Source of the DNA: a candidate division WWE3 bacterium RIFCSPHIGHO2_01_FULL_40_23
GTDB lineage: Bacteria; Patescibacteriota; WWE3; UBA101185; 2-01-FULL-41-18
Reading direction: 5' to 3'
DNA length: 64,000 nt
Assembly: GCA_001772615.1 (NCBI GenBank)
Contig: MEUZ01000001.1
Location: 189,483-253,482 of the forward strand
Below, one piece after another: positions 9,002-45,192 of the stretch (its first letter is position 1; each line of letters starts with the position of its first letter). Both the position numbers and the translations under genes were made by a program. The notes under the pieces were generated by a model that was given only the letters and a program-made list of their open reading frames with translations, was not told where the DNA came from and searched no databases.

Positions 9002-9064
9002 TTGTCATTCCTGCGAAAGCAGGAATCTGGAATTATAGGTCCCGCATCAAGAGCGGGATGACAA
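9002..9064. repeat. Structured palindromic element, copy A (GTCATTCCTGCGAAAGCAGGAATC type)
   Basis: TGTCA closing stem with TGACA around two hairpins: ATTCCTGCGAAAGCAGGAAT and TCCCGCATCAAGAGCGGGA. Intergenic, msrB/rmuC. Confidence 0.7.
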
Positions 9065-11052: not shown

Positions 11053-11098
11053 GTCATGTCATCCCGGGCTTGACCCGGGGTGACCCCTCGGGGTCACC
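11053..11098. repeat. Structured palindromic element, copy B (GTCATCCCGGGCTTGACCCGGG type)
   Basis: Hairpins CCCGGGCTTGACCCGGG and GTGACCCCTCGGGGTCAC between convergent genes; overlaps the uppS stop. Confidence 0.7.
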
Positions 11099-11825
11099 TC
11101 CCAAAGTTCCTTACGCATGAGGTAAAGTATAAAACCGCTTTTTCAAACTCTTTTACATTAAAGTCGGGGCATAACGTTTCGGTAAAATAAAGCTCCGCAT
11201 ACGTTGCCTGCCAGGGAAGAAGTCCTGAAGTTCTTGTCCTCCCACCTGTTCTTATTAAAAGGTCTATATTCTCTTTTAAATCAAGGTACTGCGAAAACTT
11301 TTGCTCCGTAACCTCCGTCTTTGAAATATCATCTTGGATCATCTTTCTCACTGCTCTTAAAATCTCATCTCTTCCTCCATATCCGAAAGCAAAATTTACA
11401 TCAATCTTATGCTCTTTTGGGTTGCTTTTTCTCACATACTCCATAACCTTTTCGGCTATATCTTTTGGAAAAAGGGAAACGTCGCCAATAATCCCTATCT
11501 TCCCGCCGCGGCTTTCTATTTCTGAAAAGTACTTCCCGCTTTCAAGATACTCTCTGGCAAGAGTGAAGATGGCATCAAGAAATTCTTTGTCCCTTCTGAA
11601 GTTTTCCGTTGAAAAAACCCAGAAGGTTATTGATTTAACCCCAAGCTCTCCGGCTCTTGAAATAGCTGCCTTCATGTTTTCAATTGATACCCTGTGACCC
11701 TCAATCTCTTTTAATCCGTGTTTTTTAGTCCACCTTCTGTTGCCATCCATTGCAATAGCTATAGTTTTTGGGAAAAGTTCCGGCGATTTGCCATAAAGAG
11801 AGTCAATATCATCATTCATAAACAT
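11094..11825 (-). CDS. uppS: Undecaprenyl-diphosphate synthase (cis-prenyltransferase)
   Basis: IAMDGNRRW…, FSTENFRR, RTGGRTRTSGLLPWQ, and ELYFTETLCPDF. Confidence 0.93.
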   Translation of the reverse strand: MFMNDDIDSLYGKSPELFPKTIAIAMDGNRRWTKKHGLKEIEGHRVSIENMKAAISRAGELGVKSITFWVFSTENFRRDKEFLDAIFTLAREYLESGKYFSEIESRGGKIGIIGDVSLFPKDIAEKVMEYVRKSNPKEHKIDVNFAFGYGGRDEILRAVRKMIQDDISKTEVTEQKFSQYLDLKENIDLLIRTGGRTRTSGLLPWQATYAELYFTETLCPDFNVKEFEKAVLYFTSCVRNFGR

Positions 11826-21098: not shown

Positions 21099-21716
21099 GT
21101 GGATAAAAAAATAAAAGCTGTTTTGCTTACGATAACACTTTTAATTTATGTTTCATTTACCGTTAAGGTAATTAATATATTTCTTGCCGACTACTATCAC
21201 ATTAAAGGTAAAAAGCTTTTGTATAGGGGATACCTCTCGGAGGCAAATGACAATATTAATAAAGCCATAAAACTAAATTATGAAGAGCCGTCCTATCATA
21301 GGACTAATGCTGCTTTGTTTCTTGCTGCGCTCTCTTTAAAGGAAGGAGACATGCAAAAAATAAAACAATATGCCCTGTCGGAAATGGAAACCGCTTATAA
21401 TCTTCAGAAAATAAACCTTGTCAATCTTAAACACCTGCTCTCTCTTTATTATTACTTAAGTGTTGATGACGCTGTAGATCCGAGGGAAATTGATGATCGA
21501 TTAAAGACAAAAACAATGACCTTTTTTGAAGAGGTAAAGGACATTTCGCCAAATGACTCAAGCGTTTACCTTACGATCGGAAAATATTACGGACTGCTTA
21601 AGGAATATGAGTTGGCGGAAGAAGCTCTTGAGAAAGCCTTGAAGCTTAAGCCTGATCTAAAGGAGGCAAAAGATGAGCTTGATGCAGTCAGAGTTAAAAC
21701 AGGTTTTAAGGCCTGA
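21099..21716 (+). CDS. TPR-repeat protein with N-terminal TM anchor
   Basis: TM helix, then TPR-like repeats (…YYGLLKEYELAEEALEKALKLKPD…). Confidence 0.6.
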   Translation: MDKKIKAVLLTITLLIYVSFTVKVINIFLADYYHIKGKKLLYRGYLSEANDNINKAIKLNYEEPSYHRTNAALFLAALSLKEGDMQKIKQYALSEMETAYNLQKINLVNLKHLLSLYYYLSVDDAVDPREIDDRLKTKTMTFFEEVKDISPNDSSVYLTIGKYYGLLKEYELAEEALEKALKLKPDLKEAKDELDAVRVKTGFKA

Positions 21717-22839
21717 CCTCAACCACATAAGAAGAGGATACCCAACCTTCTTTACCGTCTCCAAAAAGCACTTTAAGCCATTCCGTTCTTTCCTCAAGGA
21801 CAGACACCTCATCACCGCTGTTTATTCTCCCTATTTCGCTCGCGGTCAAACTCGGCTCTGATCTCACCCTTAACCAGCCTGTACCTGTGGATAGGACCTT
21901 CACTTTCTTACCTATAAGGTCAATACCAGTAAACCTTTCAAGTGCAGTTTTAGCCTCATTGGTCAATCCACTATCGGATTTCCTTCCAAGGTAAGCTATT
22001 GTATCACCGGCTTTCAAGGCAAATTTATCATTTCCCGTAACGGGACTGCCGTCCGCTCCATAAATATTCCCAAGGTAGTCAATAAAATATGAGAATTTAA
22101 GAGCTGTGTTTCTTGTTTTATTCCAGTAAACAATCCCGTTTACCCAAAGAGGAACATCCAGGGTTAACTCATTAAGATCGGAAGAAAGATCATAAACAAC
22201 TTTAGACCCCGGGATGACAGCCGACTTATCAGGGACCGGAATTAGAAAGAGCTGAACCGAAACATTAAGTTTGTAGTTCTTCTTTATTTTAACTCTTGCC
22301 GTTTGAGGCTCAAAACCCGCTTTTTCCACGCGAAGGTCATACTCCCCATCGGAAAGAACTGATGACGAATATGGTGTCTTTCCAACCTCGGCGTCGTCAA
22401 TAAAAACGGTTGCCTGCGATGGTTCCGAAACAAGGCTTATTTTTGAACTTAAATCTTTATAATCAATCCAAAAATTCTGCCCTGAAGAAAAGCTTCTTGA
22501 AATGCCAAGATCCCTATTAATAACGACTTGGGGAACTTCTCTTGAGTTTGTCGTAAAGGGAATCGTCGCTTCATATGAATTTAAAGGCCCTTTAACCTTT
22601 ACCAAGTGTGAGCCGGGTTTTACTTCCCACGACTGGTAAGGAGTATTGCCAAGCTTACTATCATCAAAATAAACTTCTGCATCCCCGTAAGAAACACTAA
22701 CCGAAAGGCCCGATTGCCCCCAAAAAGCGCTTCTATGTCTATAAACTTTATAAAGCAGGAATGCCGAAGTTAAAATGCCCGCAGTAATAAGTAAAATAAA
22801 AAGGGCTTTTTTACCTTTTTCGTTCGTATCCGTCAACAT
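21706..22839 (-). CDS. Membrane-anchored protein with two PEGA domains and a C-terminal SH3b domain
   Basis: PEGA-like EVYFDDSKLGNTPY and VFIDDAEVGKTPY…EKAGFEP; SH3b GWLRVRSEPS…GWVSSSYV. Start at MLTDTNEKGKK (22839) so that it does not overlap the tRNA. Confidence 0.65.
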   Translation of the reverse strand: MLTDTNEKGKKALFILLITAGILTSAFLLYKVYRHRSAFWGQSGLSVSVSYGDAEVYFDDSKLGNTPYQSWEVKPGSHLVKVKGPLNSYEATIPFTTNSREVPQVVINRDLGISRSFSSGQNFWIDYKDLSSKISLVSEPSQATVFIDDAEVGKTPYSSSVLSDGEYDLRVEKAGFEPQTARVKIKKNYKLNVSVQLFLIPVPDKSAVIPGSKVVYDLSSDLNELTLDVPLWVNGIVYWNKTRNTALKFSYFIDYLGNIYGADGSPVTGNDKFALKAGDTIAYLGRKSDSGLTNEAKTALERFTGIDLIGKKVKVLSTGTGWLRVRSEPSLTASEIGRINSGDEVSVLEERTEWLKVLFGDGKEGWVSSSYVVEVRP

Positions 22840-22862
22840 TGGTTGTATAATATACCAGTCAG

Positions 22863-22936
22863 GGCCTGATCGCCAAGTGGTAAGGCAGGAGTCTGCAAAA
22901 CTCTTATCGGCGGTTCGATTCCGCCTCAGGCCTCCA
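22863..22936 (+). tRNA. tRNA-Cys (GCA)
   Basis: Acceptor stem GGCCTGA/TCAGGCC, discriminator T and encoded CCA; anticodon loop CTGCAAA; T-arm GCGGTTCGATTCCGC. Confidence 0.85.
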
Positions 22937-22956
22937 GGATCTGTACAAAGTTTATT
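22915..22956 (+). repeat. Direct repeat copy 1: 22-nt 3' end of tRNA-Cys plus 20 nt downstream (att-like)
   Basis: TCGATTCCGCCTCAGGCCTCCAGGATCTGTACAAAGTTTATT, identical to 23097-23138. Confidence 0.9.
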
Positions 22957-23096
22957 GGATAGAACACAAAAGCAAAAAGTCACGATAAACGGAATCGAAC
23001 TGCCGGACTGAGGAACGAAGTGACGAGGGAGGCGGGCTCGCGGGATTTAGAAGCTGTTATGAGCAAAGCGAATTACAGATTCTTAATACACGTGAG

Positions 23097-23138
23097 TCGA
23101 TTCCGCCTCAGGCCTCCAGGATCTGTACAAAGTTTATT
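23097..23138 (+). repeat. Direct repeat copy 2 (att-like duplicate of the tRNA-Cys 3' end)
   Basis: Exact 42-nt copy 141 bp downstream of copy 1. Confidence 0.9.
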
Positions 23139-23146
23139 ATCTAGCG

Positions 23147-24135
23147 TGCACAAATTTATTGAAAACCACTTAAGACATAGAACTTTTAAGGATTTCTACC
23201 AATCGGATATTACATCCGTTGAAGAGGATATAGCCACAAGCGGGATAGCGGAAGTCTTTGCGCCGGTAATACTTAGAGCGTTGTTTTGGGCGGCCCTTAC
23301 CTTACCTGCCGTCGTAAGCTTAAACACCTCAAACGTTGCTTTATTCCTTACACCAATAGCCTTTGTTGCGGGTTCCGCATGGTTCATACTGTCCCTATCA
23401 ACAATAAAACTGAAATTTAAACATTTTGCAGGGGACATCACAAAAAACATTTTTGAGAGCTTTCTTACCTCTCTTCTTATAATGCTGTTTATAGCTCTGT
23501 TTGCCTTAAACACATCGGCAGTAACCATTGAATATACGCTGCAAAGTAACACTTATTTTAAAATCTTTTCAGCCGTACTTGCTTCCATTGTCACAATAAG
23601 AATCGTTTATTTAATCGTTGTAGGATCCATCCAATATGCAACAAACGACGCCATGCTAACCGGCCAGCGGGAGCTTATGCAGGAGTACTTCAGGCGATCA
23701 CTCTCGTTTACATACATGGTTGCAGATTTAATCCGCAAGGAGCCCGATATAAAAGTAACAAACTATTACATCAGCGACGCCTTTTCACGAATTTTTAATG
23801 TTGCAAAACACCACCTTGTTAACAGAGCCAAACCGGGTTTTGAAGAAAAAGTAAAGGAAATTGAAGAGTTAAATAAAGACGCTCTTGCTGTTTTATCAAA
23901 CCCCGAAAGAGACCAGGACGAAGTCAATAAAACGTTCTTAACTTTGCTTCTGGGGTTTAAAAAATTATTAAATACCAAAAACAAGTCGGCCCGAAAGATA
24001 AGCTATGTGGAGATTGAAATTGACTGCCTGGAGAAAAATAAAGACTCGCATAGAGTGATTGCGTTAAGATACGCAACTATTTTCGCTCTGATTTACGAGA
24101 TTTTGCAGGATGAGGGCGAGGACATCTTCCTGTAA
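23147..24135 (+). CDS. Polytopic membrane protein (hypothetical)
   Basis: The track ORF (23020) reads through the direct repeat. A GTG at 23147 just after the repeat is the first plausible start. Five or six TM helices, C-terminal soluble region. Confidence 0.45.
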
Positions 24136-24139
24136 CCAT

Positions 24140-25603
24140 ATGAGATTAAGATTGATCATATTCACCCTTTTAGTACTCGGAGCTGTTGCGATCTTTTCAA
24201 GTCTTCAGAGGAAACATGATAAAGTAGATAAGAACGGAGCTTCTCCAACCAAGGATGCCAAAGAGGAACTAGTCCCCACTCCCGATTCCGACCAGAGTGC
24301 CCTCTTACAAAAAGGGCCGCTCATAGCACCTCCGCAACAAGACATCTACGCCAACACTTTTGAGCGTTTTAGCTATCGCTTACCTTTCATTAAACCCGAG
24401 TACATAGATTCAAATAGAGGCTTTGGTTATTGTTATCCGGGAGAGAAGGAGTGTCAGGAAAAGTTTGATGCGTCAAAGTATTTTATAAAACAGTACACAA
24501 TCGACGGGAATTTGGAAATCCAATTTATTCCTGTTGAGAATAAGCTGTACGAAATTCCCATCTGGGCTATACACAGCACATCATATGATAAATTAATCCT
24601 CAAGATCAAAGCCGGTGAAGATCTAGGAAGCCCCTGGTCTTCCAGAGTTTACAGTGATAGCACATCTTTGCCGTTTTATCCAAAAACCGCTTGTAATGTG
24701 GCTAAATTCGTAAGGGCATACAACCCATATTCCTGCAAGCCATACTCCTATAGAGCTAGAGGTAATATAAAACTTGGAATTATCGAGTTTATGCTCCCTA
24801 ATACTAAACTTCCAGCAGCCTTCGGTAAAAACTATGCAGACTACCTGAACGACTCAAGACAAACTTACAGCTTATGCGTACTGAATTATGACAACAACTG
24901 CGCTCCAGGCAACGCCACAAACACACACTATTCATTTAGATACCTGAACAAGTTCTACAAAGAAGAAGCAATAAAACACAAATTTTCAGATATTAATTTT
25001 GAGATCTCTACCTTTGGGCCATTTAAAATCCCTTCTATACCTAGATATGGCTATGATAGAGATATGAGGTACCTGAACAAACTCTTCAGAGAAGCATCCA
25101 AAACAAATGGGGTAAACCTGGACAAATTTGACCTGCTTGCTTTTGTCTTCTTTGACGATTTGAGGGAAACCCCTAAAAAGTACGCTTTTGTCTCAACAGT
25201 GTATGAAAATGCCGCTTTTATTAATATAGTTGGGATAGAGCCTACAGTAGTTGACGGCAAGGAGGTTTGGTTTCTGCCTAATGGTGATACGGATGTAGAA
25301 ACCCTAATCCATGAATTAGGACATGTATTAGGTGCAGACGATAAATACAGTTTGGTAAGCCCAGGTAGTATAGCGACAACTTGCAGAAGAGAAGGTCTTG
25401 GGGATCCGGATAAAAAACCGCTTTTTCCCCAAGAAACAGCGGACGTCTACTGTGGAAAGATATTTGAAACCAAAGAAGCATTTGAAAACCCTAAAGGCGG
25501 AAGTGATGGGACATATCAAGCTGTTCTAAACAGTGATATAAATGCTAAAGGAAGACTTGTAATAAATAGATATACCGCCAAAGAATTAGGTTGGATAGAT
25601 TGA
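24140..25603 (+). CDS. Secreted zinc-metalloprotease-like protein (HExxH zincin)
   Basis: Signal or anchor MRLRLIIFTLLVLGAVAIF; many Cys and Tyr; TLIHELGHVLGADDKYS motif near the C-terminus. Confidence 0.55.
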   Translation: MRLRLIIFTLLVLGAVAIFSSLQRKHDKVDKNGASPTKDAKEELVPTPDSDQSALLQKGPLIAPPQQDIYANTFERFSYRLPFIKPEYIDSNRGFGYCYPGEKECQEKFDASKYFIKQYTIDGNLEIQFIPVENKLYEIPIWAIHSTSYDKLILKIKAGEDLGSPWSSRVYSDSTSLPFYPKTACNVAKFVRAYNPYSCKPYSYRARGNIKLGIIEFMLPNTKLPAAFGKNYADYLNDSRQTYSLCVLNYDNNCAPGNATNTHYSFRYLNKFYKEEAIKHKFSDINFEISTFGPFKIPSIPRYGYDRDMRYLNKLFREASKTNGVNLDKFDLLAFVFFDDLRETPKKYAFVSTVYENAAFINIVGIEPTVVDGKEVWFLPNGDTDVETLIHELGHVLGADDKYSLVSPGSIATTCRREGLGDPDKKPLFPQETADVYCGKIFETKEAFENPKGGSDGTYQAVLNSDINAKGRLVINRYTAKELGWID

Positions 25604-25617
25604 GCAAAAGTCCTGAC

Positions 25618-26244
25618 CTACATAAAAGACTGGAGGATCATTTTGTAAAACTTCTTCTGGTTTAGGTAGTGATCAACAATAATAAATTCAATTCCCGCGT
25701 TTGTGGCAAACTGGTAATCGGTCTGGGAATCCCCGAAATAAATGCAGTCCTCTTTTTTGGACCCGCTTTTGTTAATTATCATGTCAAGGCAGAAAGGGTC
25801 GGGCTTTTCATGGCCTTCATCAGTGCAGGAAACAACATAGTTCAGGTATTGCGACAGGCCATTGTTTTCCATTATCTTGTTTAAAGATCCGTACTGCCTG
25901 TTGGTGCAGACGGATACTATCCTCCCCTCTTTATTGAGCGTTTTAATAATATCCGAAACTGCGTCAAATATTTCAATTTTATCTATGTTTTTTATGTGCA
26001 AGTCTTCGTTTTCCTTAACGAGAACGTGGGGGTTAAGCTTTAAACCGAAATGCAAAATCGCTTCATCAAACTGAAGATGCATTGCTGTTCCTCTTGATTT
26101 GAAATGAAGGTCTCTTAAGTATAGGTCCACTTCATAATGCTTGATGTCAATATATTTATCAAAGGTGTCAACAAACATCTGCTGGTTGAATTCGTATGAA
26201 TTTGTGATGGTGTCGTCAACATCAAAAATAAAATGTTTTTTCAC
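25618..26244 (-). CDS. HAD-superfamily hydrolase
   Basis: Motif I FDVDDTIT, motif II VCTN, and motif III K…YFGDSQTD. Confidence 0.8.
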   Translation of the reverse strand: MKKHFIFDVDDTITNSYEFNQQMFVDTFDKYIDIKHYEVDLYLRDLHFKSRGTAMHLQFDEAILHFGLKLNPHVLVKENEDLHIKNIDKIEIFDAVSDIIKTLNKEGRIVSVCTNRQYGSLNKIMENNGLSQYLNYVVSCTDEGHEKPDPFCLDMIINKSGSKKEDCIYFGDSQTDYQFATNAGIEFIIVDHYLNQKKFYKMILQSFM

Positions 26245-26292
26245 GGGTGTAATTATACGTCTTTTTAATAGGGTTGTCGTTTGTTATTAGTT

Positions 26293-26362
26293 TGTCATCC
26301 CGGCGAAAGCAGGGATCCTGAATCAAGTTCAGGATGACAAGGGCCCAAGCCCGGGATGACAA
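26293..26362. repeat. Structured palindromic element, copy D
   Basis: TGTCATCCCGGCGAAAGCAGGGATCCTGAATCAAGTTCAGGATGACAAGGGCCCAAGCCCGGGATGACAA. Confidence 0.7.
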
Positions 26363-26455
26363 AAGGTCCGCGACACAACGGACTAAGTCTAAACAAAAAG
26401 GAGGTGGACTGCAGTCAATACACCTCCTTAAAAATCCTTTGTCAACTTATGGGGT

Positions 26456-27742
26456 TTACCAGCTTCCAGAATCAGATCCGCCGGTATCCCAACTACCGCT
26501 ATCGCTACCGCCTCCCGTATCCCATGATCCAGAGTCACTGCCTGAGTCCCAACCGCCATCGGAATCGGAACCCCAGCTACCCGAATCCGTACCTCCGCTG
26601 TCCCAGCTCCCACCAGAGTCGGAGTCATCATCAGACGAATCAAACAATGATGTGCTTGAGGACGACGAGGGCTCCGGAGTGCTCGTCGGCTCGGGTGTAT
26701 TAGTCGGAAGTGGCGTGGGTGTAGGCGTTGCGGCAAGATCAGTAGCGTCTTCAGCTTTCTTAATCGCCGAGTCCGCATAAGCCATCGACGCAATGAAATC
26801 CTCGCCGTAGCAGGCTTGCCGTGCCTTCGCAACCTCCCCCTTGGCCTCCGCCAATTTGTTCTTGGCATTAACTTTATTATAGGAACTTGCGGCCACGTAA
26901 GTTATCGTGTCTGTAATTTCCTTGTCCGCCGAGATAATCTGGGTGTACGCAGTAACCACATTGGCACTGTCCACATCAGCGCGAATCCTAGCAGTAGCAA
27001 TGAGCTCCTCTGCCTTTTTGCCCTCATCGTACACCGCTGGCTTATCAATGATTCCCTCTACGGGAGTTTGAAAAGCGCGGAAGGCTACTGCGAGCTGAAC
27101 CTGTCCATTCTGTAGGGTAAAATAGGAGGCGCTGAATGTTTGAACCTTTCGATTCGGTTCATCGCATAGCACCTTCCTTGGAAGCTCATCAATGTATTGC
27201 CGCGTGGAGGTGATGGAATCACCAACCTTCACAAGATAACCGCTGTCAATATCCATTGCCTTGCGGTCAAGCTCAAGAAGGTAAGCTCTCGCATTACCCT
27301 CGGCGAGCTCGTTTACCACGACAGTCGGCTGCAAGGCCTCGTTCAGACTTTTTAGGTCCGCGTAAGCTCCATCCCAGTTTTTTGATTCCTGATCTTCGTC
27401 AAGGGCAAGTAGAAGATCGGAAATCCTTCCCTTCGGAGCCAATAACTCATCGGCGTTTGACAACTGCCGCGAGTAATCAGCCGTGTAGTAGGAAGGGAAC
27501 TTGGGAGGCTTGTGTGCGTCAAGAACCTGATGCGCCTCCGGAAGATTCTCCGTCAGCTCCTGAACCTGAAAGCGGATGCCATCCTCCCGCCTTTGAACAT
27601 CCATCGCCTTGGCGGGGGATAAAATTGAGGGGCCAAACATGATGGCCGCGCCGGCAAACATCATCAGGATTCCCGAAACCACCCACCGCCACCAATTCTC
27701 AAAATCAAAGTACCTATCGAGTATTTTCGACAGTTCGTCCAC
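26456..27742 (-). CDS. Membrane-anchored protein with C-terminal (D/S/G)-S-G-S-W repeat tail (hypothetical)
   Basis: TM near the N-terminus, about 300-aa helical domain, TPTPTP linker, then seven WD/WG-spaced DSGSW repeats at the C-terminus. GC-rich. Confidence 0.55.
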   Translation of the reverse strand: MDELSKILDRYFDFENWWRWVVSGILMMFAGAAIMFGPSILSPAKAMDVQRREDGIRFQVQELTENLPEAHQVLDAHKPPKFPSYYTADYSRQLSNADELLAPKGRISDLLLALDEDQESKNWDGAYADLKSLNEALQPTVVVNELAEGNARAYLLELDRKAMDIDSGYLVKVGDSITSTRQYIDELPRKVLCDEPNRKVQTFSASYFTLQNGQVQLAVAFRAFQTPVEGIIDKPAVYDEGKKAEELIATARIRADVDSANVVTAYTQIISADKEITDTITYVAASSYNKVNAKNKLAEAKGEVAKARQACYGEDFIASMAYADSAIKKAEDATDLAATPTPTPLPTNTPEPTSTPEPSSSSSTSLFDSSDDDSDSGGSWDSGGTDSGSWGSDSDGGWDSGSDSGSWDTGGGSDSGSWDTGGSDSGSW

Positions 27743-27816
27743 TTTGTCCTCTCCTTTTTACGACAGATTAATTTTTGCTTTCGCAAACCGCCGGATTTAA
27801 CAACTCACAACCACCT

Positions 27817-27887
27817 TTGTCATCCCGGGTTTGACCCGGGATCCCGTTGGAGTTGCTGTAGAGATCCCTGCATCCGCAGGGATGACA
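27817..27887. repeat. Structured palindromic element, copy E
   Basis: TGTCA + ATCCCGGGTTTGACCCGGGAT + TCCCTGCATCCGCAGGGA + TGACA. Confidence 0.75.
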
Positions 27888-27964
27888 GGGGGTCGTGTTA
27901 AACTCGCCGGTTTACACACGAGAAAGTAAAACAAAACTTCCTCGTGTGAATGGTGGGCAGACCT

Positions 27965-28846
27965 TTAGAACGGAATCCCGCACTGCGTACAGGTTGTTGC
28001 GTTCGGAGCTTTCTGAACGCCGCAAGCAGGACAACGCGTTTTTGCTTCTTCAATCTGCTCTTGAAGCTTTGCCTGCCTCTGCTGACGTGCTTCCTCACCC
28101 TGCTTTTCCCAGTAAGCATCTTCATCAGGTTTCGCGGCTTTGTCCAAAGCACCCCACACCTGAAGCTTCAGGGTGAATACACTGAATTTACTTCCGATTC
28201 CTTGGGCAAGGTTGGAGGCAGTTGAGCCCATAAGGTCTGTGAGTGTGGACAGAATGTTCGAAGCGCCGCCAAACCGCCTGGCAATACTTGCTGCAGTACC
28301 GGCAATGTCCAACGCCGCAGTTGCGGCACCCTCAAGTTTGAGATTCCCAACGGAAACCGTGGTTGTCCCGTCACGATTTTCTGTAACGGAAACCTCAAGA
28401 ACTGGGACCCATCGCCCGCCAAGAAGCTGCTGAACGGTATAAGCCCCACCCGCAAATGAGCGGGCCACACGCGTATCATCATCTTCCAAAGCCACCAAGG
28501 CACGCTCAATTACATCAGCCCGGCAGTAGTAATTGTGTGGGTCAGGGTGGTACACAATTGCCGCGCCAACTCCCGCCCCGATTCCAACCACCCCGAGGAG
28601 GGTTCCCAACTCCCCGCTGACGCCGGCTCCGGAAGAAGTGGCTGAGGGCATAGAAGCAAATCTCTGTGAAAGAACCTTAAGCTCCGTTGCTTCCGCCTGT
28701 CTCTTTGGCTGCTTTGCCAATAGACCTTTGAGGATCTTCACCAAGCCATCCTGCGAAAGTTCCGCCCAAGCGTCCTTCATAGGACCCTCTTCAATCCCAT
28801 CCCAAATTGCCTTAAGATCGGAAGGTAGGGCATTAATATCCGCCAT
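27965..28846 (-). CDS. Hypothetical protein with C-terminal zinc ribbon
   Basis: 293 aa; Gly/Ala-rich centre, coiled coil, and CPACG…CTQCG at the C-terminus. GC-rich. Confidence 0.5.
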   Translation of the reverse strand: MADINALPSDLKAIWDGIEEGPMKDAWAELSQDGLVKILKGLLAKQPKRQAEATELKVLSQRFASMPSATSSGAGVSGELGTLLGVVGIGAGVGAAIVYHPDPHNYYCRADVIERALVALEDDDTRVARSFAGGAYTVQQLLGGRWVPVLEVSVTENRDGTTTVSVGNLKLEGAATAALDIAGTAASIARRFGGASNILSTLTDLMGSTASNLAQGIGSKFSVFTLKLQVWGALDKAAKPDEDAYWEKQGEEARQQRQAKLQEQIEEAKTRCPACGVQKAPNATTCTQCGIPF

Positions 28847-28967
28847 TCTCTCATCTCCTTATCTTTTCCTTATTGGTTTTGTAAAGTGTGAGTATTATAG
28901 GTTTTATGAATGCGGGTGTCAAAAACGAACCATGTTTTAAGATTCACTAACACTTTTGCGGGTACTG

Positions 28968-29064
28968 TCTGTCATCCCGGGCTTGACCCGGGATCTTATC
29001 GCGGGATTGTCATAGAGATCCCGGATCATGTGCCCGCCTTCGGCAGGCAGGTCCGGGATGACAA
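28968..29064. repeat. Structured palindromic element, copy F (double unit)
   Basis: CTGTCATCCCGGGCTTGACCCGGGATC… plus GATCCCGGATC… plus GTCCGGGATGACAA, between divergent genes. Confidence 0.75.
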
Positions 29065-29136
29065 TTGGAATAAACCTGAATAAAGATATAAAATATCCGA
29101 TAGCAAAACTATTACAAAGAAAAGAGGAAAGAGACC

Positions 29137-29922
29137 ATGAAAAAGCTTATTGTAGCTATGGTAGCGTTTCCGTTGGTGGTACTGCTCTACGCGTGTGTAT
29201 CCCGCAACCCCCAGCTCACGGAAACACCAGCCGCAGTCGGAACCGCTACACGGGTGGCACTATCAACCGCGTCAGCGGAGGTTTCTCTGACTCCGAGTCC
29301 CGAAGTAAGTGAAGCCGTCTTTATCAAAGGCGGGGTGGCTACACTTGGCCGTACGGAAAAAGAGGTTGAGGAAGACTATCAAGACTGCCTTGCTATGGCG
29401 GGCAGGACAAATCAAGCAGCTTCAATCTGTGAACCAAAGGATAGTGTCTTTGGCGACCGGCCGCTTCGTACCATGTGGAAAGTGGAAGCTTTTCGCCTTG
29501 ATATTTATGAAGCCCACGATTCCAATGGCTACCCGCTCATCGTGCACTACGACGAAGCGGTTAAGGCCTGCCAGGAAAAAGGCGGAAGACTCCCCACCGA
29601 GGAACAGTGGGAATTTGCCGCGCGCGGCGAGGAGGGAAGAATGTGGCCATGGGGAAACAGCCCGCCCACAGCCGACAAGGCAAACATTGACACGGTTGGC
29701 GGCTACTCCGACAATCGCGTTCAAAAAGTGGGACAATACGAAGCGGGCAAAACGCCCGAAGGGGTCCACGACATGGTCGGAAACGTATGGGAATGGGTCG
29801 AAGGCGGCATGCGAAAAGGCGGGAGCGCGGGAAGCTATGTGGTTTTCACAAAGCCTTCCCATATGACCAGCGATAGCCAGGCTGGTTTCCGTTGCGCCTA
29901 TGATGCGCCCCCTAACTCATGA
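29137..29922 (+). CDS. Lipoprotein with formylglycine-generating-enzyme (FGE/SUMF1)-type domain
   Basis: Lipobox LLYAC; HDMVGNVWEWV…GGS…GFRCA signature. Confidence 0.75.
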   Translation: MKKLIVAMVAFPLVVLLYACVSRNPQLTETPAAVGTATRVALSTASAEVSLTPSPEVSEAVFIKGGVATLGRTEKEVEEDYQDCLAMAGRTNQAASICEPKDSVFGDRPLRTMWKVEAFRLDIYEAHDSNGYPLIVHYDEAVKACQEKGGRLPTEEQWEFAARGEEGRMWPWGNSPPTADKANIDTVGGYSDNRVQKVGQYEAGKTPEGVHDMVGNVWEWVEGGMRKGGSAGSYVVFTKPSHMTSDSQAGFRCAYDAPPNS

Positions 29923-29927
29923 GATTA

Positions 29928-29954
29928 GATTCCTGCTTCCGCGGGAATGACAAG
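29928..29954. repeat. Partial palindromic element, copy G (ATTCCTGCTTCCGCGGGAATGACAAG)
   Basis: Half-element immediately 3' of the FGE gene. Confidence 0.5.
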
Positions 29955-29955
29955 T

Positions 29956-29996
29956 TTTTTTTCAGAGCGGAAAGAACACAAACTTTCCGCTTTTTT
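29956..29996 (+). terminator. Rho-independent terminator
   Basis: AGCGGAAAG…CTTTCCGCT followed by TTTTTT. Confidence 0.65.
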
Positions 29997-30091
29997 ATTC
30001 AAAAACAAAACCGAATTTCAAATAAAAAACCCTCCGAACACGAGGTCACAACTTCTGTGACATCTGATTCAGAGGGTGTCAAACTTAAAGT

Positions 30092-31669
30092 CTAGGGGTC
30101 ACACTCCCCGATTGCCTTACCCCATTCACGGGTTGTCACGTCAAAGGTAGTCCTGTAATCCCCTTCAGTAGTAACGACCTCTAGCACTGTGCCGCTAAAA
30201 CCGGTAAGTTTCAACGTGCACTCCATTGTGCTTATGGGGTAACCCTTCGGAACCTCCGCTCCCTTTTCCAAAATCAAGGTAGCCTGGCCGTTAGCTGTCG
30301 CCCCTGCGAACACAACAACGGATTGGCCGTCGGTAGTATCCACACCAGTCCACCGTGTCGTTAGCCGGTAGCCTGGGTACGGTCCTCCAGTCACTTCCAT
30401 AATCCTGCCGGCCACCGAAGGAGTCAGTCCGGGGATAGTCGGCTGAACCGGTTGAGTGAGGTACTCAATTGCCTTCTCCGGCGGTAACGGCTGTGGGGCG
30501 TCGCACCCACTCAAAAGTGCAAACGTCACCAAAGAGGTCAAAACCAAATTCCTCATCATCTCACACTCCTCTACTTGCGAGCTCACACTTGGATAAGTGT
30601 AGGTTCGCGTGATATCGGTTGACCAACGAATTGTCAACTGTTCTAAGGGAGGTTTAACAATCTCATCCCTTAGCTGACGCCACCCTTCTTCCGGGCTATT
30701 GTCGGCCCCTTCGCAACCCGGCGGTTGGGGTCCTCCCGGAGGGCACCTCTGCTTTTGGGTCATAACCCCAACGAAGCGGATGGTTTCCCCATACTGCTCA
30801 CGCACAAAGTTGGCAACATCGGCCCACTGCCTAGCGTTGTATCCATTTATGTTGTAAATCTCCGGAACCGGACGGGCGTATGGGATATGCGGATTCCCTT
30901 TACCGATACGGCAGCACTTATATGCCACCTCGTCATAGTTCCATCCGTTCTCGCATACGTCACTGTCTACATTGCACACGGCGTTGCCAAAATCAAGCAA
31001 ACAACCTTTGTCGGGGTCCCCGGGAACACAGGTTGTTGCTTTAATGTACTCCTCTTCCCAACGCTCGGTGGTGTAAGGGTCGTTCCACGTGAGCTCCATA
31101 TCACTCGCACCGACGATGGTAACCTGACTGCTGTAGTTGGCCGCTCCCTGGACTATGGAATTAACCATTAAAGCCCAGGCCTTGCCATGTCCCACAGCAA
31201 GAGCCAAGTCCATTGAGGAGTTATTCACCCCAACGCCGATCGTCAATTGGGACAGCTTATCCCTTGACGAATAGATCCAGAAATTTCTGGCCATTTGTCT
31301 TACAGCTTCTCTAATGTCAGATTCCTTAAAGAAACCGTCAACAAAAATAGGCCAGGCTCCCCAGATACTGCCCGATTTTCCCGGATAACCAAGATCCAAA
31401 ACCACAAGCCAGTCCTGGGCCCTGGGCGTGTTGTACGCCGCAATGCCCAAAGCCCGGCCGACATCCGGAAGAAACCTTAAGTCATCAACATAATAGGACT
31501 TGGTCCATCCCGGATACGGGGGCAGCGGGTAATTTTTCAGGATCAGCGGCAGGTAAACCTTCCGGTGGTTTAGGGCGTCACTCTTCTCCTCCTCTGCGCT
31601 TATACCACTTACTCCGCTTGACGTTAGAAAGACCGCTAACGCAAGCAAGGCACAGAGGACGCGCTTCAT
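30092..31669 (-). CDS. Secreted protein ORF (525 aa) containing an internal second lipoprotein signal peptide (possible fusion of two genes)
   Basis: N-terminal signal peptide MKRVLCALLALAVFLTSSGVSG. At residue 371, MMRNLVLTSLVTFALLSGC (lipobox) is preceded by GAGGAG; an internal start would be at 30559. There is no stop codon between the two halves. Confidence 0.55.
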   Translation of the reverse strand: MKRVLCALLALAVFLTSSGVSGISAEEEKSDALNHRKVYLPLILKNYPLPPYPGWTKSYYVDDLRFLPDVGRALGIAAYNTPRAQDWLVVLDLGYPGKSGSIWGAWPIFVDGFFKESDIREAVRQMARNFWIYSSRDKLSQLTIGVGVNNSSMDLALAVGHGKAWALMVNSIVQGAANYSSQVTIVGASDMELTWNDPYTTERWEEEYIKATTCVPGDPDKGCLLDFGNAVCNVDSDVCENGWNYDEVAYKCCRIGKGNPHIPYARPVPEIYNINGYNARQWADVANFVREQYGETIRFVGVMTQKQRCPPGGPQPPGCEGADNSPEEGWRQLRDEIVKPPLEQLTIRWSTDITRTYTYPSVSSQVEECEMMRNLVLTSLVTFALLSGCDAPQPLPPEKAIEYLTQPVQPTIPGLTPSVAGRIMEVTGGPYPGYRLTTRWTGVDTTDGQSVVVFAGATANGQATLILEKGAEVPKGYPISTMECTLKLTGFSGTVLEVVTTEGDYRTTFDVTTREWGKAIGECDP

Positions 31670-31886
31670 TGTAGTCTCCTTAAAGGCTAAAAGTACCCGT
31701 TAAATCTCTTGCTAAAAAACCGATTGTGTATTAGGCGTCAGCCTTCCTTTCTAATTGTGAATAATTTGAAAGTTGTCTTAATTATACTTCTACACAAACC
31801 GGCCCATAAAATCAACAGTTTTTAACCTAGACCGTTATTAGCCCCCATGGTATGATTTAAAACAGTAATTGATTTAAGGAGAATTT

Positions 31887-32099
31887 ATGATGACAGAAGG
31901 TGGCCAAAACAACGAAGGTGGGGAAGGCTCGGCTTTGGCTTCTATAAACGAAGTTTTGGAGGCACTAGATCCTGAAAATAGAGAAAGTTTAAGAGGTGCA
32001 ATAGCAGAAGCATTAGCAGATGGGAAAACACCCGATGAGATAGTTAAGATACTGGAGGGGGGAGTGGAAGAAAATCCTCCCACAGCACAATCCACTTGA
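31887..32099 (+). CDS. Small acidic protein (70 aa)
   Basis: Strong RBS TAAGGAGAATTTATGATG; Glu/Gly/Ala-rich. Confidence 0.45.
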   Translation: MMTEGGQNNEGGEGSALASINEVLEALDPENRESLRGAIAEALADGKTPDEIVKILEGGVEENPPTAQST

Positions 32100-32245
32100 C
32101 ACTCGTGGGGGTTGTCTGCTATATATTTATCGGATCAAATTTTGCCCTAATTTCAATTAGCGATAACCAATCGGTTGGAGTTGCTTAATAAAGCGAATTT
32201 AGGGCTCTTAAAATAATGTCTAAAAATTTAACGAAGGAAAAAAAT

Positions 32246-32536
32246 ATGAAAGTTAAGCCTCTTTCAGATTATATTTTAATAGAACCAAAAACCCAAAAAG
32301 ACTCAACCACGCCGTCAGGAATAGTCCTTCCCGACACGGCAAAAGAAAAACCCCAGGAAGGAAAAGTAATTGCGGTAGGGCCGGGAAGATATGACGACAA
32401 AGGAAACCTCATTAAAATGAGCGTTAAAACCGGCGATATTGTTTATTACAAAAAATGGGGCGGAAACGAAATTAAACTTGACAACAAAGAATACCTTCTC
32501 GTTAAGGAAGAAGACATTTTGGCAATTATTGAGTAA
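32246..32536 (+). CDS. groES: Co-chaperonin GroES
   Basis: MKVKPLSDYILIEPK…GKVIAVGPGR; ATG at 32246 with RBS AAGGAAAAAAAT. Confidence 0.93.
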   Translation: MKVKPLSDYILIEPKTQKDSTTPSGIVLPDTAKEKPQEGKVIAVGPGRYDDKGNLIKMSVKTGDIVYYKKWGGNEIKLDNKEYLLVKEEDILAIIE

Positions 32537-32599
32537 TTAGAATAAAATTTACCTGCTTAAAAAATAAAGTATTAAGGTTTTACATAGGAGGAAATTAAT

Positions 32600-34267
32600 A
32601 TGCCAGCCAAACAGCTACTTTACGGAGACGAAGCTAGAAAAAAATTAAAAGCGGGAGTTGATAAGCTTGCCAAAGCCGTTGTCACTACGCTTGGACCAAA
32701 AGGCAGAAACGTTTCATTAGATAAGAAATGGGGGGCGCCCCAGGTAGTCCATGACGGGGTAACGGTTGCAAAAGAAATAGAGCTTGAGGATCCTTTTGAA
32801 AACATGGGAGCCCAGCTTGTTAAAGAAGCGGCTTCAAAAACAAACGATGTAGCAGGTGACGGAACTACTACAGCAACTCTTCTTGCACAGGCAATCGTTG
32901 ATGAAGGTTTAAAAAATGTATCCGCGGGGGCAAATCCGATGATAGTAAGACACGGCCTTGAAAAGGCAGCCGAGCTTGTTGTAAACGAAATTAAAGCAAT
33001 GTCCAAAAAAATAACTACCAAGGAAGAAAAAGCCCAGGTAGCGACAATTTCAGGAGCAAGCGAAGAAATTGGCAATCTTATCGCGGAAGCAATGGATCAC
33101 GTTGGAAATAATGGGGTCATAACGGTTGAAGAATCAAAAGGTCTAAAGATGGAGGTTGAATATAAGGAAGGGATGCAGTTTGATAAAGGTTATGCCTCTC
33201 CATATTTTGTCACAAACCCCGATAAAATGGAGGCTACAATAGAAAGCCCTTATATTTTAATCACGGATCAGAAGATCTCGGCGATATCAGACCTTCTTCC
33301 CATGCTTGAAAACCTAATTAAAGTTTCCAAAAACCTTGTGATAATCGCGGATGAAGTTGATGGGGAAGCGCTTGCTACACTCGTCGTAAATAAAATAAGA
33401 GGCACATTTAATGCTCTTGCCGTTAAAGTCCCCGGTTTTGGGGACAGAAGAAAAGAAATGCTTGCCGACATTGCGGTTTTAACTGGTGGAACAGTTATAA
33501 GCGAGGAAGTTGGAAGAAAGCTTGACAGCGTAAAGGTTGATGATCTAGGAAAAGCAGATAGAATTACAGCCGACAAAGACGAAACCATTATCGTTGGCGG
33601 AAAAGGCAAAAAAGCCGATCTTAACGCAAGAATTGCCCAAATCCAAAAGCAGATTGAAACAACCGACTCATCTTATGACAAAGAAAAACTTCAGGAAAGG
33701 CTTGCTAAACTCTCTGGGGGTGTGGCGGTGATAAGTGTAGGAGCCGCATCGGAAACAGAGCTTAAAGAGAAAAAGTTAAGAGTGGAGGACGCCGTAAACG
33801 CAACCAAAGCCGCAGTTGAAGAAGGCATTGTTCCCGGAGGCGGAGTAGCACTTTTAAGAGCAAGAAAAGTTTTAAAGAAAATGAAGCTTGAAGGGGATGA
33901 GCAAATCGGAGCCACCATACTTTTTAACGCTTTAGATAAACCCTTAAGAATGATAACCGAAAACGCGGGAGTTGACGCAGGATGGGTTGTAAGAGAACTT
34001 GAGCATCGCGAGGAAGACAGTAGTAAAGCGGGCAAGGGCGGTAATAACATAGGATATAACGTCTTAACCATGGAATTTGAGGATATGGTAAAAAGCGGGA
34101 TTATGGATCCTGCAAAGGTTGCAAGAACCGCTCTTCAAAATGCGGTTTCAGTTGCGATAATGGTTTTAACTACTGAAACTCTGGTAACCGAAGTTCCCGA
34201 AAAAGAAAAAGCCCCGATGGGAGGAATGCCCGGTGGCATGGGTGGCATGGGCGACATGGATATGTAA
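32600..34267 (+). CDS. groEL: Chaperonin GroEL
   Basis: [24 protein letters not shown], and a C-terminal GGM repeat. Confidence 0.97.
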
Positions 34268-34323: not shown

Positions 34324-34764
34324 CTAAAGACTAAAGCTCTCCAACAGATCGCTAGGATCGTCCATGGAAAAAGGATTAGCTTCTTTATCAGTAGCGGGAA
34401 GGTGGCTGAAATAAACCTTAGCCTTTACCTTCATCCCTTCTTCAACAAAGACCTCAAGAACATTGAAGAGAGGCCGCATCCTATTACCATGCGAAAGAAA
34501 TACACCGTTTCTCCTCGTCAGCCACACAACTTGGCCCACCGGGGTGTAATCCACATCCTGCTCATCAACCCAGGCGAAACGCACACCCAAAGGAAGCGGG
34601 GCATCTTCAACCGCTTGCAGCGTAACACCCGCACGGCCGTCAGGGAGAAGAACAGGAACAACATCAACAACAACCGTCTCTACTCTGCCCGGTTCAAGTG
34701 TTACATTCCAAGCAAGGCGTGATCCCGGTAACAGGACCCTTTCATTCCCTGGAAAGTAAGTCAT
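34324..34764 (-). CDS. Hypothetical protein, GC-rich (146 aa)
   Basis: Start at MTYFPGNERV (34764) with AAGGAG 7 nt upstream. No motif. Confidence 0.45.
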   Translation of the reverse strand: MTYFPGNERVLLPGSRLAWNVTLEPGRVETVVVDVVPVLLPDGRAGVTLQAVEDAPLPLGVRFAWVDEQDVDYTPVGQVVWLTRRNGVFLSHGNRMRPLFNVLEVFVEEGMKVKAKVYFSHLPATDKEANPFSMDDPSDLLESFSL

Positions 34765-34865
34765 CTTTTTCTCCTTTTCTTTCTGTTTGTTCACCAAGGT
34801 TATCAAATATTCAGGGTTATATCAACTATAGGTTAGAGGGATCTGTCCAGGAACGACAGGTTAAT

Positions 34866-40839: not shown

Positions 40840-40914
40840 TTGTCATCCCGGGGCTTGACCCGGGATCTCTACAGAAGATCCGATGGGATCCCCGCTTTCG
40901 CGGGGATGACATCC
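40840..40914. repeat. Structured palindromic element, copy H
   Basis: TTGTCATCCCGGGGCTTGACCCGGGATC…GGATCCCCGCTTTCGCGGGGATGACATCC. Confidence 0.75.
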
Positions 40915-42039: not shown

Positions 42040-42663
42040 CTAGATAAGAAGTGGCAGGAAGTACGTTATTGAAACCCCAATCACCCCGTTGACAACCGCA
42101 TAAAGTATCAGCACAGCAAATGAGGCCGCGCGCAGGTTCTCATCGGAACTTGACAGTCTGAAGTACCTGAAGATAAACGCCCAGCTGCAAGCAAAAACGG
42201 AAGCAAAGAGGGCGGACATCAGGTATGTTCCCAGGCCAAAGTCAAAAAGCGGCGGTCCCGCAGGTTTAGACACGACCCTGTAAGATGAGCTGTCCGGGAC
42301 AAAGTACGGCAGCAGGGCCACACCTCTTATAAGTGCAGCCAGTGCAAAGAGCCTCATACCCCAAATGAGCCATTCCCACCTTGGAATAAGCCTCTTTAGA
42401 GCCTTGCCCCAGTCAACCCCTTCCACCAGCTTCTTCTCCAAGGGCTTATGAAAAAGCCCGACGAAAATGAGAAGCAACCCTGAAGCAAGCGAAAGGTACG
42501 AAAGGTACCCTCCCGTGCCAAACACGAGAAGCATCAGGTGGGAAAGAAGCAGGCCGAAACCCGCGGTTGCCGCCACAGCGGGAACGCCGTGCTTCTCGTA
42601 AAAACCTCCCACTTTCAGAAGAAGCCCCCAAAGTTCGGCCAATAAGCTCTTAAGAGTTGTCAT
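42040..42663 (-). CDS. Hypothetical polytopic membrane protein
   Basis: Start at MTTLKSLLAE (42663) with AAGGAG upstream; six TM helices. Confidence 0.5.
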   Translation of the reverse strand: MTTLKSLLAELWGLLLKVGGFYEKHGVPAVAATAGFGLLLSHLMLLVFGTGGYLSYLSLASGLLLIFVGLFHKPLEKKLVEGVDWGKALKRLIPRWEWLIWGMRLFALAALIRGVALLPYFVPDSSSYRVVSKPAGPPLFDFGLGTYLMSALFASVFACSWAFIFRYFRLSSSDENLRAASFAVLILYAVVNGVIGVSITYFLPLLI

Positions 42664-42738
42664 CTCTAATCTCCTTTTTTCTCTTTTTGATGAAGGTAAA
42701 CCTAACAACGTAAATTGTCAAATGGAATAGCCAAATTG

Positions 42739-44940: not shown

Positions 44941-45192
44941 CTACTCCACAATTTCTCCATCAATTATATTATCGCCCTTGTCATCCCGTGCTTGACCCAG
45001 GATCTCTGTTTTTATCCTTTCTTCTTTGGCATGCGACAAAAATCTAATTAAAAGCGCTAGAAGCAGGGCGGCTATGTCATCCCCATAACCCAAAATAGGG
45101 ACAAAATCCGGTATAAAATCAAGAGGAAACAAAACATAAAGTATCGCAAGAATTAGCATCCAATTGTCTTTTATAAATCTTTTCAGGTTCAT
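44941..45192 (-). CDS. DUF1232 (YkvA-like) small membrane protein; C-terminal tail encoded by a palindromic element
   Basis: DFIPDFVPILGYGDD signature. The C-terminal …EILGQARDDK is the translation of element copy J. Confidence 0.55.
   Translation of the reverse strand: MNLKRFIKDNWMLILAILYVLFPLDFIPDFVPILGYGDDIAALLLALLIRFLSHAKEERIKTEILGQARDDKGDNIIDGEIVE
44977..45008. repeat. Degenerate palindromic element, copy J, inside a CDS
   Basis: CTTGTCATCCCGTGCTTGACCCAGGATCTCTG. Confidence 0.5.

Follow-up and report, generated by a model that had tools for sequence, protein, structure and literature searches.

A duplicated tRNA-Cys 3′ end and a composite, integrase-less island between tRNA-Cys and groES in a WWE3 bacterium

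We analysed a 64,000-nucleotide stretch of DNA, hereafter the window, from the candidate division WWE3 bacterium RIFCSPHIGHO2_01_FULL_40_23, a member of the Patescibacteria, or candidate phyla radiation (CPR), from the groundwater of the Rifle aquifer with a genome of about 1 Mb. The subject of this work is the slot between the gene for tRNA-Cys and the chaperonin genes groES-groEL, which in this genome holds an exact duplication of the tRNA 3′ end followed by a block of genes that relatives do not have at this place. CPR bacteria have tiny genomes with few recognisable mobile elements, and their acquisition of accessory genes is poorly documented. The slot provides a concrete and mappable example: the tRNA-Cys/groES junction is deeply conserved, and its content differs in nearly every WWE3 lineage.

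The tRNA-Cys locus and its duplicated 3′ end

On the left, the slot is anchored by a conserved gene on the reverse strand (21706..22839) that encodes a surface protein with PEGA and SH3 domains (Pfam PEGA, 5e-22; SH3_3, 2e-16) and is 100% identical to A2716_02670. The FGE-domain and 525-aa proteins described below likewise match proteins of this genome at 100% identity. The start of this gene lies 23 nt from an intact tRNA-Cys(GCA) gene on the forward strand (22863..22936), which was called by ARAGORN, scores 63.4 bits against Rfam RF00005 and is the sole tRNA that ARAGORN finds in the window. On the right, the slot ends at a conserved groES promoter block on the forward strand (32065..32129, with TTGACA at 32096-32101 and TATATA at 32120-32125), recognised by blastn to the loci of two relatives (L016 and L015). 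This boundary is followed by groES-groEL on the same strand (32216..34267), the conserved right anchor. An open reading frame (ORF) for an acidic protein of 70 aa (31887..32099, forward strand) abuts the groES promoter and is unique to the lineage of the window.

The last 22 nt of the tRNA gene, from T-loop position 55 to the CCA end, recur downstream together with 20 nt of flank. They form an exact 42-nt direct repeat on the forward strand, with copy 1 at 22915..22956 and copy 2, a displaced tRNA-Cys 3′ fragment, at 23097..23138. An earlier note, made from the sequence alone, had described this repeat, and its coordinates are borne out. The gap between the copies, to which no strand is assigned (22957..23096), measures 140 nt and the start-to-start distance 182 nt; no such repeat is expected in shuffled sequences. 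The repeat begins at position 53 of the 74-nt tRNA, which is T55 in standard numbering (numbered from the sequence). The 52 nt 5′ of copy 2 bear no likeness to the tRNA, so the left edge of the identity at copy 2 is sharp.

The spacer has no notable ORF and no other copy, and it matches no tRNA or RNA family (ARAGORN, Rfam). It does hold the T-arm-like fragment that the earlier note had placed there on the opposite strand, a 16-mer at 22990-23005 that is complementary at 15 of 16 positions to 22908-22923 and is significant locally only. The z-score of the RNA fold was -2.45 over the whole interval and -0.5 when the pseudo-tRNA stretch was taken by itself. A scan of 22000-32500 against Rfam, with E≤1, returned the tRNA and one small-RNA match at chance level. 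A second tRNA, or a functional tRNA-like minihelix, can be rejected, since ARAGORN and Rfam came back empty and the folds of the second copies are no better than those of shuffled sequences.

We found no third copy of the repeat, either exact or with up to three mismatches, and the best Smith-Waterman score equals that of the shuffled null; both results rule out a distal copy at the far end of the inserted genes. The block from 23 to 31.7 kb is not bracketed by the repeats, which enclose 140 nt only. The repeat, whether as an attP or as an empty site, has no exact match in IMG/VR or in JGI metagenome contigs, so that neither a donor element nor a polymorphic empty site came to light.

The locus is present in fifteen contigs from several samples and assemblers, at 99.1-100% identity. 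Three scaffolds bridge both repeat copies. In addition, three independent Logan assemblies end at 23109, which is the branch point expected of a k=31 graph for the right end of the 42-nt repeat. Because scaffolds span the copies and the Logan breaks fall at this point, the duplication is not an assembly artefact.

We compared the locus with those of about 30 WWE3 relatives, whose contexts were gathered from homologues of the PEGA protein (38-63% identity; at least 173 homologues, with about 35 contexts viewed), one genome scan, contig look-ups and one metagenome scan; 23 of these loci hold both the tRNA-Cys and the groES markers. The gene order Wzy, TPR, PEGA, tRNA-Cys, slot, groES, groEL is conserved across them, and tRNA-Cys adjoins the start of the PEGA gene in all compared relatives. 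From the tRNA 3′ end to the groES start, the 23 loci span 48-3806 bp, as against 9279 bp in the window. In the closest relative (L023), whose tRNA-Cys is identical to that of the window at 74 of 74 positions, the slot measures 149 bp, and the same groES promoter, CCACTTGACACTC...TGCTATATAT, begins 47 nt after the tRNA.

The earlier note had suggested looking for the block at this locus in related genomes, and it is absent there: none of the eight slot ORFs of the window has a homologue in any of the relatives' loci, and the window repeat is missing from them as well. The slots are mutually unrelated and unlike that of the window, except for the 65-bp groES promoter block (32065-32129 in the window). 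Since the relatives' slots lack the slot genes, about 9.15 kb (22937 to about 32065-32090) constitutes a lineage-specific insertion between the tRNA 3′ end and the groES promoter.

A search of every locus for further copies of the 3′ end of its own tRNA yielded three more cases, which brings such duplications to at least four WWE3 lineages. Next to the window (repeat of 42 nt starting at T55, spacer of 140 nt) these are L038:2613-2694 (21 nt, C56, 61 nt), L051:635-689 (38 nt, C56, 17 nt) and L040:9541-9746 (21 nt, A58, 185 nt). All four boundaries fall within the 7-nt T-loop, at positions 55-58. Random breakpoints are unlikely to place four boundaries in a 4-nt stretch of a 75-nt gene, the chance being about 1e-3 to 1e-2 by our own estimate.

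The L040 case can be read against congeneric loci without the duplication (L042-L044, 83% DNA identity), relative to which it is a 210-bp insertion. Beyond copy 2 the native post-tRNA flank, a terminator-like hairpin, resumes; beyond copy 1 lies a diverged paralogue of this flank. This layout is the expected B-O-P′ ... P-O-B′, as if incoming DNA with its own tRNA 3′ end had recombined in the T-loop. The L040 tRNA also carries two substitutions that L042-L044 do not have. In L038 and L040 the identity stops at the CCA end or 2 nt past it, as expected if an attP mimics the tRNA only. L038 and L051, from genomes that are otherwise unalignable, share a homologous insert of perfect small hairpins (AATCCGC...GCGGA), and the DNA between their copies still has a likeness to the central part of the tRNA, beginning at position 27 for L051 (p 0.0005) and at the D-loop for L038 (p 0.027).

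Other observations in the slots are as follows. In L051, the second copy of the tRNA-Cys 3′ end is followed at a distance of 9 nt by the start of a gene for a 78-aa GIY-YIG nuclease (L051:372-608, reverse strand; Pfam 1.5e-9), which is the sole selfish-looking gene in any WWE3 tRNA-Cys slot examined; the GIY-YIG motif was not found in the window. In many WWE3 lineages (L010, L028, L038, L040, L048, L049, L052, L053 and L056) the slot is filled by alaS (about 600 aa; Pfam tRNA-synt_2c). The clade of the window has no alaS at the tRNA-Cys/groES position, from which it follows that the gene was moved or lost there. The slots of other relatives hold unrelated small ORFs. At L016:3420-3560 a run of N with the same tRNA-Cys 5′ half on both sides suggests an artefact at a scaffolding gap rather than a true duplication.

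Two modules and their palindromic elements

The inserted block falls into two compositional modules. GC content is 0.400 at 22937-26244, 0.519 at 26245-31700 and 0.419 in the rest of the window. The earlier description of a GC-richer block from 23.1 to 31.7 kb thus holds for 26.25-31.7 kb and not for the host-like 22.94-26.24 kb. The four genes at 26456-31669 have a GC content at third codon positions (GC3) of 0.51-0.585, compared with a window median of 0.40 (median absolute deviation 0.032). No other part of the window deviates as strongly in composition as 26.25-31.7 kb, where tetranucleotide distance peaks (z up to 9.4), and the GC shift is therefore distinguishable from the background, a point on which the earlier note had made its proposal depend.

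The host-like module begins with a polytopic membrane protein (23020..24135, forward strand; GC3 0.44). Its ORF was called from GTG 23020 and spans repeat copy 2; ATG 23059 and GTG 23146 are possible true starts. The next gene encodes a putative membrane-anchored zinc metalloprotease of 497 aa (24110..25603, forward strand), also host-like in composition, with an N-terminal helix, a beta-sandwich and an HExxHxxGxxD domain. Across 28 homologues, residues H401, E402, H405, D411 and Y413 do not vary and G408 hardly does. The protein has no Pfam match, and its profile matches are weak (snapalysin 1c7k, E 0.007; OgpA, E 0.75). An AF2 model (pLDDT 76.6) has Akkermansia OgpA as its best Foldseek match, with an E of 4e-4 and a TM of only 0.25-0.32. 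The module closes with a HAD-family phosphatase on the reverse strand (25618..26244; Pfam HAD_2, 4e-28).

The GC-rich module encodes four proteins. The first is a membrane-anchored protein of 428 aa with a tail of Ser/Gly/Asp/Trp repeats (26456..27742, reverse strand; GC3 0.561), and the second a 293-aa protein with a C-terminal zinc ribbon (27965..28846, reverse strand; Pfam Zn_ribbon_3, 3e-4, and NCBIfam zinc-ribbon DG, 9e-7, both below cut-off). The third is a short FGE/SUMF1-domain lipoprotein (29137..29922, forward strand; Pfam FGE-sulfatase, 5e-19) with four short-form homologues at 47-52% identity. The gene for one of these homologues (L024:10001-10774; 47% identical) stands alone, with a GC of 0.49, on a CPR-like contig whose GC is 0.35, so the FGE gene looks foreign in a second low-GC genome as well. 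The last is a secreted protein of 525 aa (30092..31669, reverse strand). Its residues 1-353 have two distant homologues only, each followed by a separate gene of about 240 aa in a neighbourhood that is not CPR-like, and a second signal peptide of the lipoprotein type (MMRNLVLTSLVTFALLSGC) occurs at about residue 366. Given this second signal peptide and homologues that end near 353, the ORF probably represents two genes that were fused or are read through.

The gene content is as the earlier note had described it: a membrane protein, an HExxH protein whose extended HExxHxxGxxD motif proves invariant, a HAD hydrolase, a protein with a DSGSW-repeat tail, a zinc-ribbon protein, an FGE protein and the 525-aa ORF. 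To judge from these domains, the cargo would consist of envelope or host-contact proteins.

The GC-rich module varies between strains. A second strain, marked by a single-nucleotide polymorphism (SNP) at 27041 (C>A), diverges near 27258-27290, and several of its contigs, L007 among them, end between 26954 and 27290, inside the gene for the 428-aa protein. The strain SNPs are too few to gauge purifying selection. One scaffold (L003, 1-950) joins, at 27077, AT-rich DNA with a 166-aa ORF absent from the window, as a result of either a rearrangement or a chimera.

We noted that the module is accompanied by short palindromic elements. Four full copies are present in the window. The first (26293..26361), with ends TGTCATCCCGG...CCGGGATGACA and a DNA fold z of -5.8, marks the left edge of the GC-rich module; the second and third lie at 27818..27887 and 28970..29063, and the fourth outside the block at 40841..40911. 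All are intergenic, 70-95 nt long and have inverted ends and internal hairpins (DNA fold z -3.5 to -5.8). Their architecture is TGTCATCCCGGG(C)TTGACCCGGGATC...GGGATGACA, with ends that can also be given as TGTCATCCCGGG...CCCGGGATGACA, and we also refer to the element as TGTCATCCCGGGCTTGACCCGGGATC. The motif TGTCATCCCGG has 12 matches in comparison with 0.5 expected, and partial copies lie near 9053, 11057-11100 and 44979-45005. Being short, multi-copy and intergenic, with terminal inverted repeats and a stable hairpin, the TGTCATCCCGG elements resemble miniature inverted-repeat transposable elements (MITEs) or repetitive extragenic palindromic (REP) sequences. The block had been called dense in such elements, which is true in that three of the four complete copies lie within it; they also occur elsewhere in the window.

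The element motif is found in none of the loci of the WWE3 relatives. Five IMG/VR contigs (L057-L061; GC 0.58-0.67) contain an exact match to a 25-nt element end, in an overall architecture that is similar, and four plasmids of Sphingomonadaceae (Sphingomonas, Novosphingobium and Sphingobium) contain this end at 93-96% identity. No transposase (RAYT or IS) that could belong to the elements was seen among the window ORFs scanned. The distribution of the elements fits an import of GC-rich DNA from high-GC bacteria, and the elements may act as a tracer of the flow of such DNA into this CPR genome. Their presence at sites without a tRNA further shows that GC-rich DNA has been inserted into this genome at places other than the tRNA as well.

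Further features lie outside the slot. By tetranucleotide distance, the region at 1-3 kb ranks second among the anomalies of the window (z 6), and other ORFs with outlying GC3 (0.56-0.59) are found at 1164-2801, 7201-7587, 8090-8497 and 42040-42708. In relatives, a 1017-aa gene abuts the next conserved gene; in the window, a ribosomal L25 gene and the 42040-42708 ORF lie in between. A 160-aa ORF (34324-34806, reverse strand; GC 0.48) lies between groEL and the next conserved gene, where L014 and L015 have only about 60-80 bp, which makes it another small lineage-specific insertion. The window also holds dnaN and a TraG/VirB4-like P-loop ATPase (54123-55247 and 55480-57540), as well as a DnaA-family match, and is therefore near the replication origin region.

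Proposed integration at the T-loop and its alternatives

With a probability of about one half, we take the WWE3 tRNA-Cys/groES gap to be a recombination hot spot that carries, in this genome, a composite and immobile 9.15-kb island together with the scar of an insertion in the T-loop. This reading builds on the repeat with its T-loop start, on the insertion relative to relatives, on the two compositions and on the recurrence in other WWE3 genomes. The 42-bp repeat would be the scar of an insertion with its crossover in the T-loop of the tRNA. Copy 1, attL-like in this model, would complete the working tRNA, copy 2, attR-like, would be the displaced 3′ fragment, and the 140-nt spacer a miniature element or the leftover of a larger one.

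The cargo would comprise a first, host-like module (the membrane protein, the OgpA/snapalysin-like metalloprotease and the HAD phosphatase) and a second, GC-rich one, in which three MITE-like palindromic elements accompany four surface or secreted proteins. One event or several separate ones would have laid both down at this landing site, with later loss of the distal attachment site, and the GC-rich module would stem from a donor of higher GC. The joints may have been made by a tyrosine-type integrase, acting in trans or since lost, and the cargo may have entered through the same tRNA site. Site-specific integration by a crossover in the tRNA is thus what we infer; the GC-rich module can be tied to the scar only tentatively.

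Two claims of the earlier note survive in part. The signature of site-specific integration stands as far as the T-loop 3′ fragment, its recurrence and the empty relatives are concerned, and is weakened by the missing integrase and by a cargo that lies outside the repeats. The idea of a remnant or fixed island holds for a lineage-specific, integrase-less insertion and is less secure for the GC-rich part with its unproven tie to the repeat, and for a block made of two modules.

Several observations weigh against the hot spot with its island and scar. No integrase, recombinase, transposase or phage family was found among the slot ORFs (Pfam, PHROGs, NCBIfam), no integrase or recombinase among the other window ORFs scanned (for 40 ORFs, the first 25 of 47 families) and none among the 30 ORFs of the relatives' slots. 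The two copies enclose 140 nt only, with the cargo of about 9 kb beyond copy 2 and without a distal copy. The identity runs past the tRNA end, by 20 nt in the window and 17 nt in L051, which a simple attP/attB exchange does not predict; an extra assumption is therefore needed, either a donor with the same flank or a tandem integration of related elements. The inserts of the relatives are tiny (55-210 bp), and none of them has an intact element. The block consists of two modules, of which the distal one alone is GC-rich. GC-rich genes and palindromic elements are also found at non-tRNA sites (the four outlying ORFs listed above; elements at 9053, 11057, 40841-40911 and 44979), so the GC-rich module need not have used the tRNA site. 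Finally, the nearest relative is distant (63% amino-acid identity in PEGA), and the 9 kb could therefore have built up slowly by any mechanism.

The absence of an integrase had already been stated in the earlier note and holds for the slot and for the window ORFs scanned; likewise, the comparison with mobile-element and phage databases that it had proposed brought up no phage or mobile family among the slot proteins. PHROGs gave generic HAD and FGE matches only, and five slot proteins, the polytopic membrane protein included, have no relative in IMG/VR. The slot DNA at 22937-30900 has no blastn match in INPHARED, and the GC-rich block has none in PLSDB. An origin of the cargo from a prophage, a phage satellite or a plasmid was rejected on these four negative searches (PHROGs, IMG/VR, INPHARED and PLSDB). 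An integron cassette array was rejected as well, there being no attC, no intI and genes in mixed orientation.

It is possible, if on the doubtful side, that the repeat and the GC-rich cargo have nothing to do with each other. The 26.25-31.7 kb segment would then owe its presence to the process, whatever it may be, that spreads GC-rich genes and TGTCATCCCGGG-type elements around this genome, with the scar 3 kb away by chance. Indeed, 3.1 kb of host-like DNA separates copy 2 from the GC-rich module, a palindromic element sits exactly at the left edge of that module, and other GC3 outliers and elements lie at non-tRNA sites, some of them at synteny breaks (40.8-42.7 kb, 34.3-34.8 kb). The FGE homologue in the other low-GC contig, solitary and GC-rich, likewise has no tRNA nearby. 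A chance neighbourhood agrees less well with the fact that the whole 9.15 kb, host-like module included, is missing from every relative's slot and that the slot as a whole is a hot spot; moreover, the scan of window ORFs tied no transposase to the elements.

Since the copies bracket 140 nt, no integrase was found and the identity extends into the flank, routes without an integrase stay live rivals, and we consider them rather unlikely. Homology-facilitated illegitimate recombination with other WWE3 DNA could have used the tRNA as its anchor, or a template switch could have occurred at the T-arm hairpin during replication; jointly with either, the slot would fill because insertions between the tRNA and the groES promoter are harmless. 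In their favour, no integrase was found in anything examined, and the 17-20 nt over which the repeats of the window and L051 stay identical past the tRNA suggest that the donor, a sister chromosome or a close strain, had this flank too. What follows copy 1 in L040 is a diverged paralogue of the native flank and looks like part of another WWE3 chromosome, and the L040 tRNA has two substitutions absent from L042-L044. The perfect small hairpins that make up the inserts of L038 and L051 also speak for such routes. Against them, the boundaries cluster at T-loop positions 55-58 in four loci, and the repeats of L038 and L040 cease to match where the tRNA ends, a typical mark of attP mimicry. The duplication cannot be a simple tandem one, for its spacer consists of new sequence that copies nothing else.

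A bolder extension of the hot-spot reading, which we regard as improbable, is that an unrecognised WWE3 recombination system repeatedly targets the tRNA-Cys T-loop and leaves integrase-less mini-insertions of 55-210 bp, so that the site serves as a capture platform beside groESL. The WWE3 inserts could then be att-only, non-autonomous mini-islands mobilised in trans. The platform would let genes for surface proteins and palindromic elements of a proteobacterial type pass into these reduced genomes from high-GC bacteria, possibly the hosts of the symbiont.

Very unlikely, in our judgement, is a third origin of the repeat, in which an old tandem duplicate of tRNA-Cys decayed at its 5′ end and left copy 2 behind. 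The likeness of the between-copy DNA to the middle of the tRNA in L051 and L038 would agree with such decay, as would a weak resemblance of the window flank to the anticodon arm (p 0.027 over 30 nt). However, identity at 42 of 42 positions gives way to no similarity over the 52 nt upstream (spacer p 0.38), an edge too sharp for neutral decay; moreover, 20 nt of the identical stretch lie outside the tRNA, and the closest relatives have no second copy.

That the repeat or the GC-rich block is an artefact of assembly or binning can practically be discounted: scaffold L003, a possible chimera, does fuse unrelated AT-rich DNA at 27077, but L001, L002, L004, L005 and the 258-kb NCBI contig, from different samples, agree across both copies and both GC-rich edges, and the Logan contigs break at the exact point predicted for k=31.

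All genes of the 5.5-kb module, foreign in composition, are for envelope or secreted proteins, and the palindromic elements within it are otherwise seen in high-GC bacteria. Should the mechanism be confirmed, the site could be used as a marker to follow how genes flow into episymbiotic bacteria and to identify the recombinase behind the joints.

Relation to known tRNA-linked islands and repeats

The palindromic elements are similar to the REP- and MITE-like elements of proteobacteria in being 70-95 nt long, intergenic, multi-copy and hairpin-forming, and in sharing an end module with high-GC contigs and Sphingomonadaceae plasmids. They differ in residing in a CPR genome of 42% GC with no associated RAYT or IS seen.

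Homology-facilitated illegitimate recombination, reportedly described by de Vries and Wackernagel in 2002, is comparable in that a conserved tRNA could be a one-sided homology anchor for foreign DNA, and the L040 insert does resemble a piece of another WWE3 tRNA-Cys locus. By itself, however, this process predicts neither a duplication of the 3′ end of the anchor nor a clustering of joints in the T-loop.

Islands at tRNA loci that have lost their integrase or their repeats are exemplified by Salmonella SPI-2 and SPI-3, and tandem arrays of islands are recorded in Islander. The window shares with such decayed or anchored islands and tandem arrays the presence of unrelated modules at one tRNA, the lost mobility genes and the mosaic composition. 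In contrast to the members of tandem arrays, which normally keep their own fragment and integrase, the window keeps one fragment, proximal to the cargo.

Another close comparison is with islands of the Islander type, which are integrated into tRNA genes by tyrosine integrases and include P4-like and pathogenicity islands. Their signature is a regenerated tRNA gene with a displaced fragment of it (PMC4383910), and the crossover subsites within tRNA genes are the anticodon loop, the T-loop and the T/acceptor junction (PMC4383910). The window differs from these islands in having no integrase gene, in a tRNA and fragment that enclose 140 nt instead of the cargo, in a cargo without a distal fragment, in an identity that extends 20 nt beyond the tRNA, and in its host, a CPR bacterium with a genome of about 1 Mb. 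It resembles them in an intact tRNA followed by a 3′ copy in the same orientation, in an identity block that starts in the T-loop, one of the known subsites (PMC4383910), in lineage-specific genes directly 3′ of the tRNA, part of them deviant in composition, and in an insertion that is absent from the same locus in relatives, the nearest of which has only 63% PEGA identity.

The feature is a degenerate, composite and integrase-less tRNA-linked island together with a genuine att-like duplication, a kind well known in other bacteria. It is mildly unusual only in its occurrence and recurrence in WWE3/CPR genomes and in the miniature size of the duplicating inserts.

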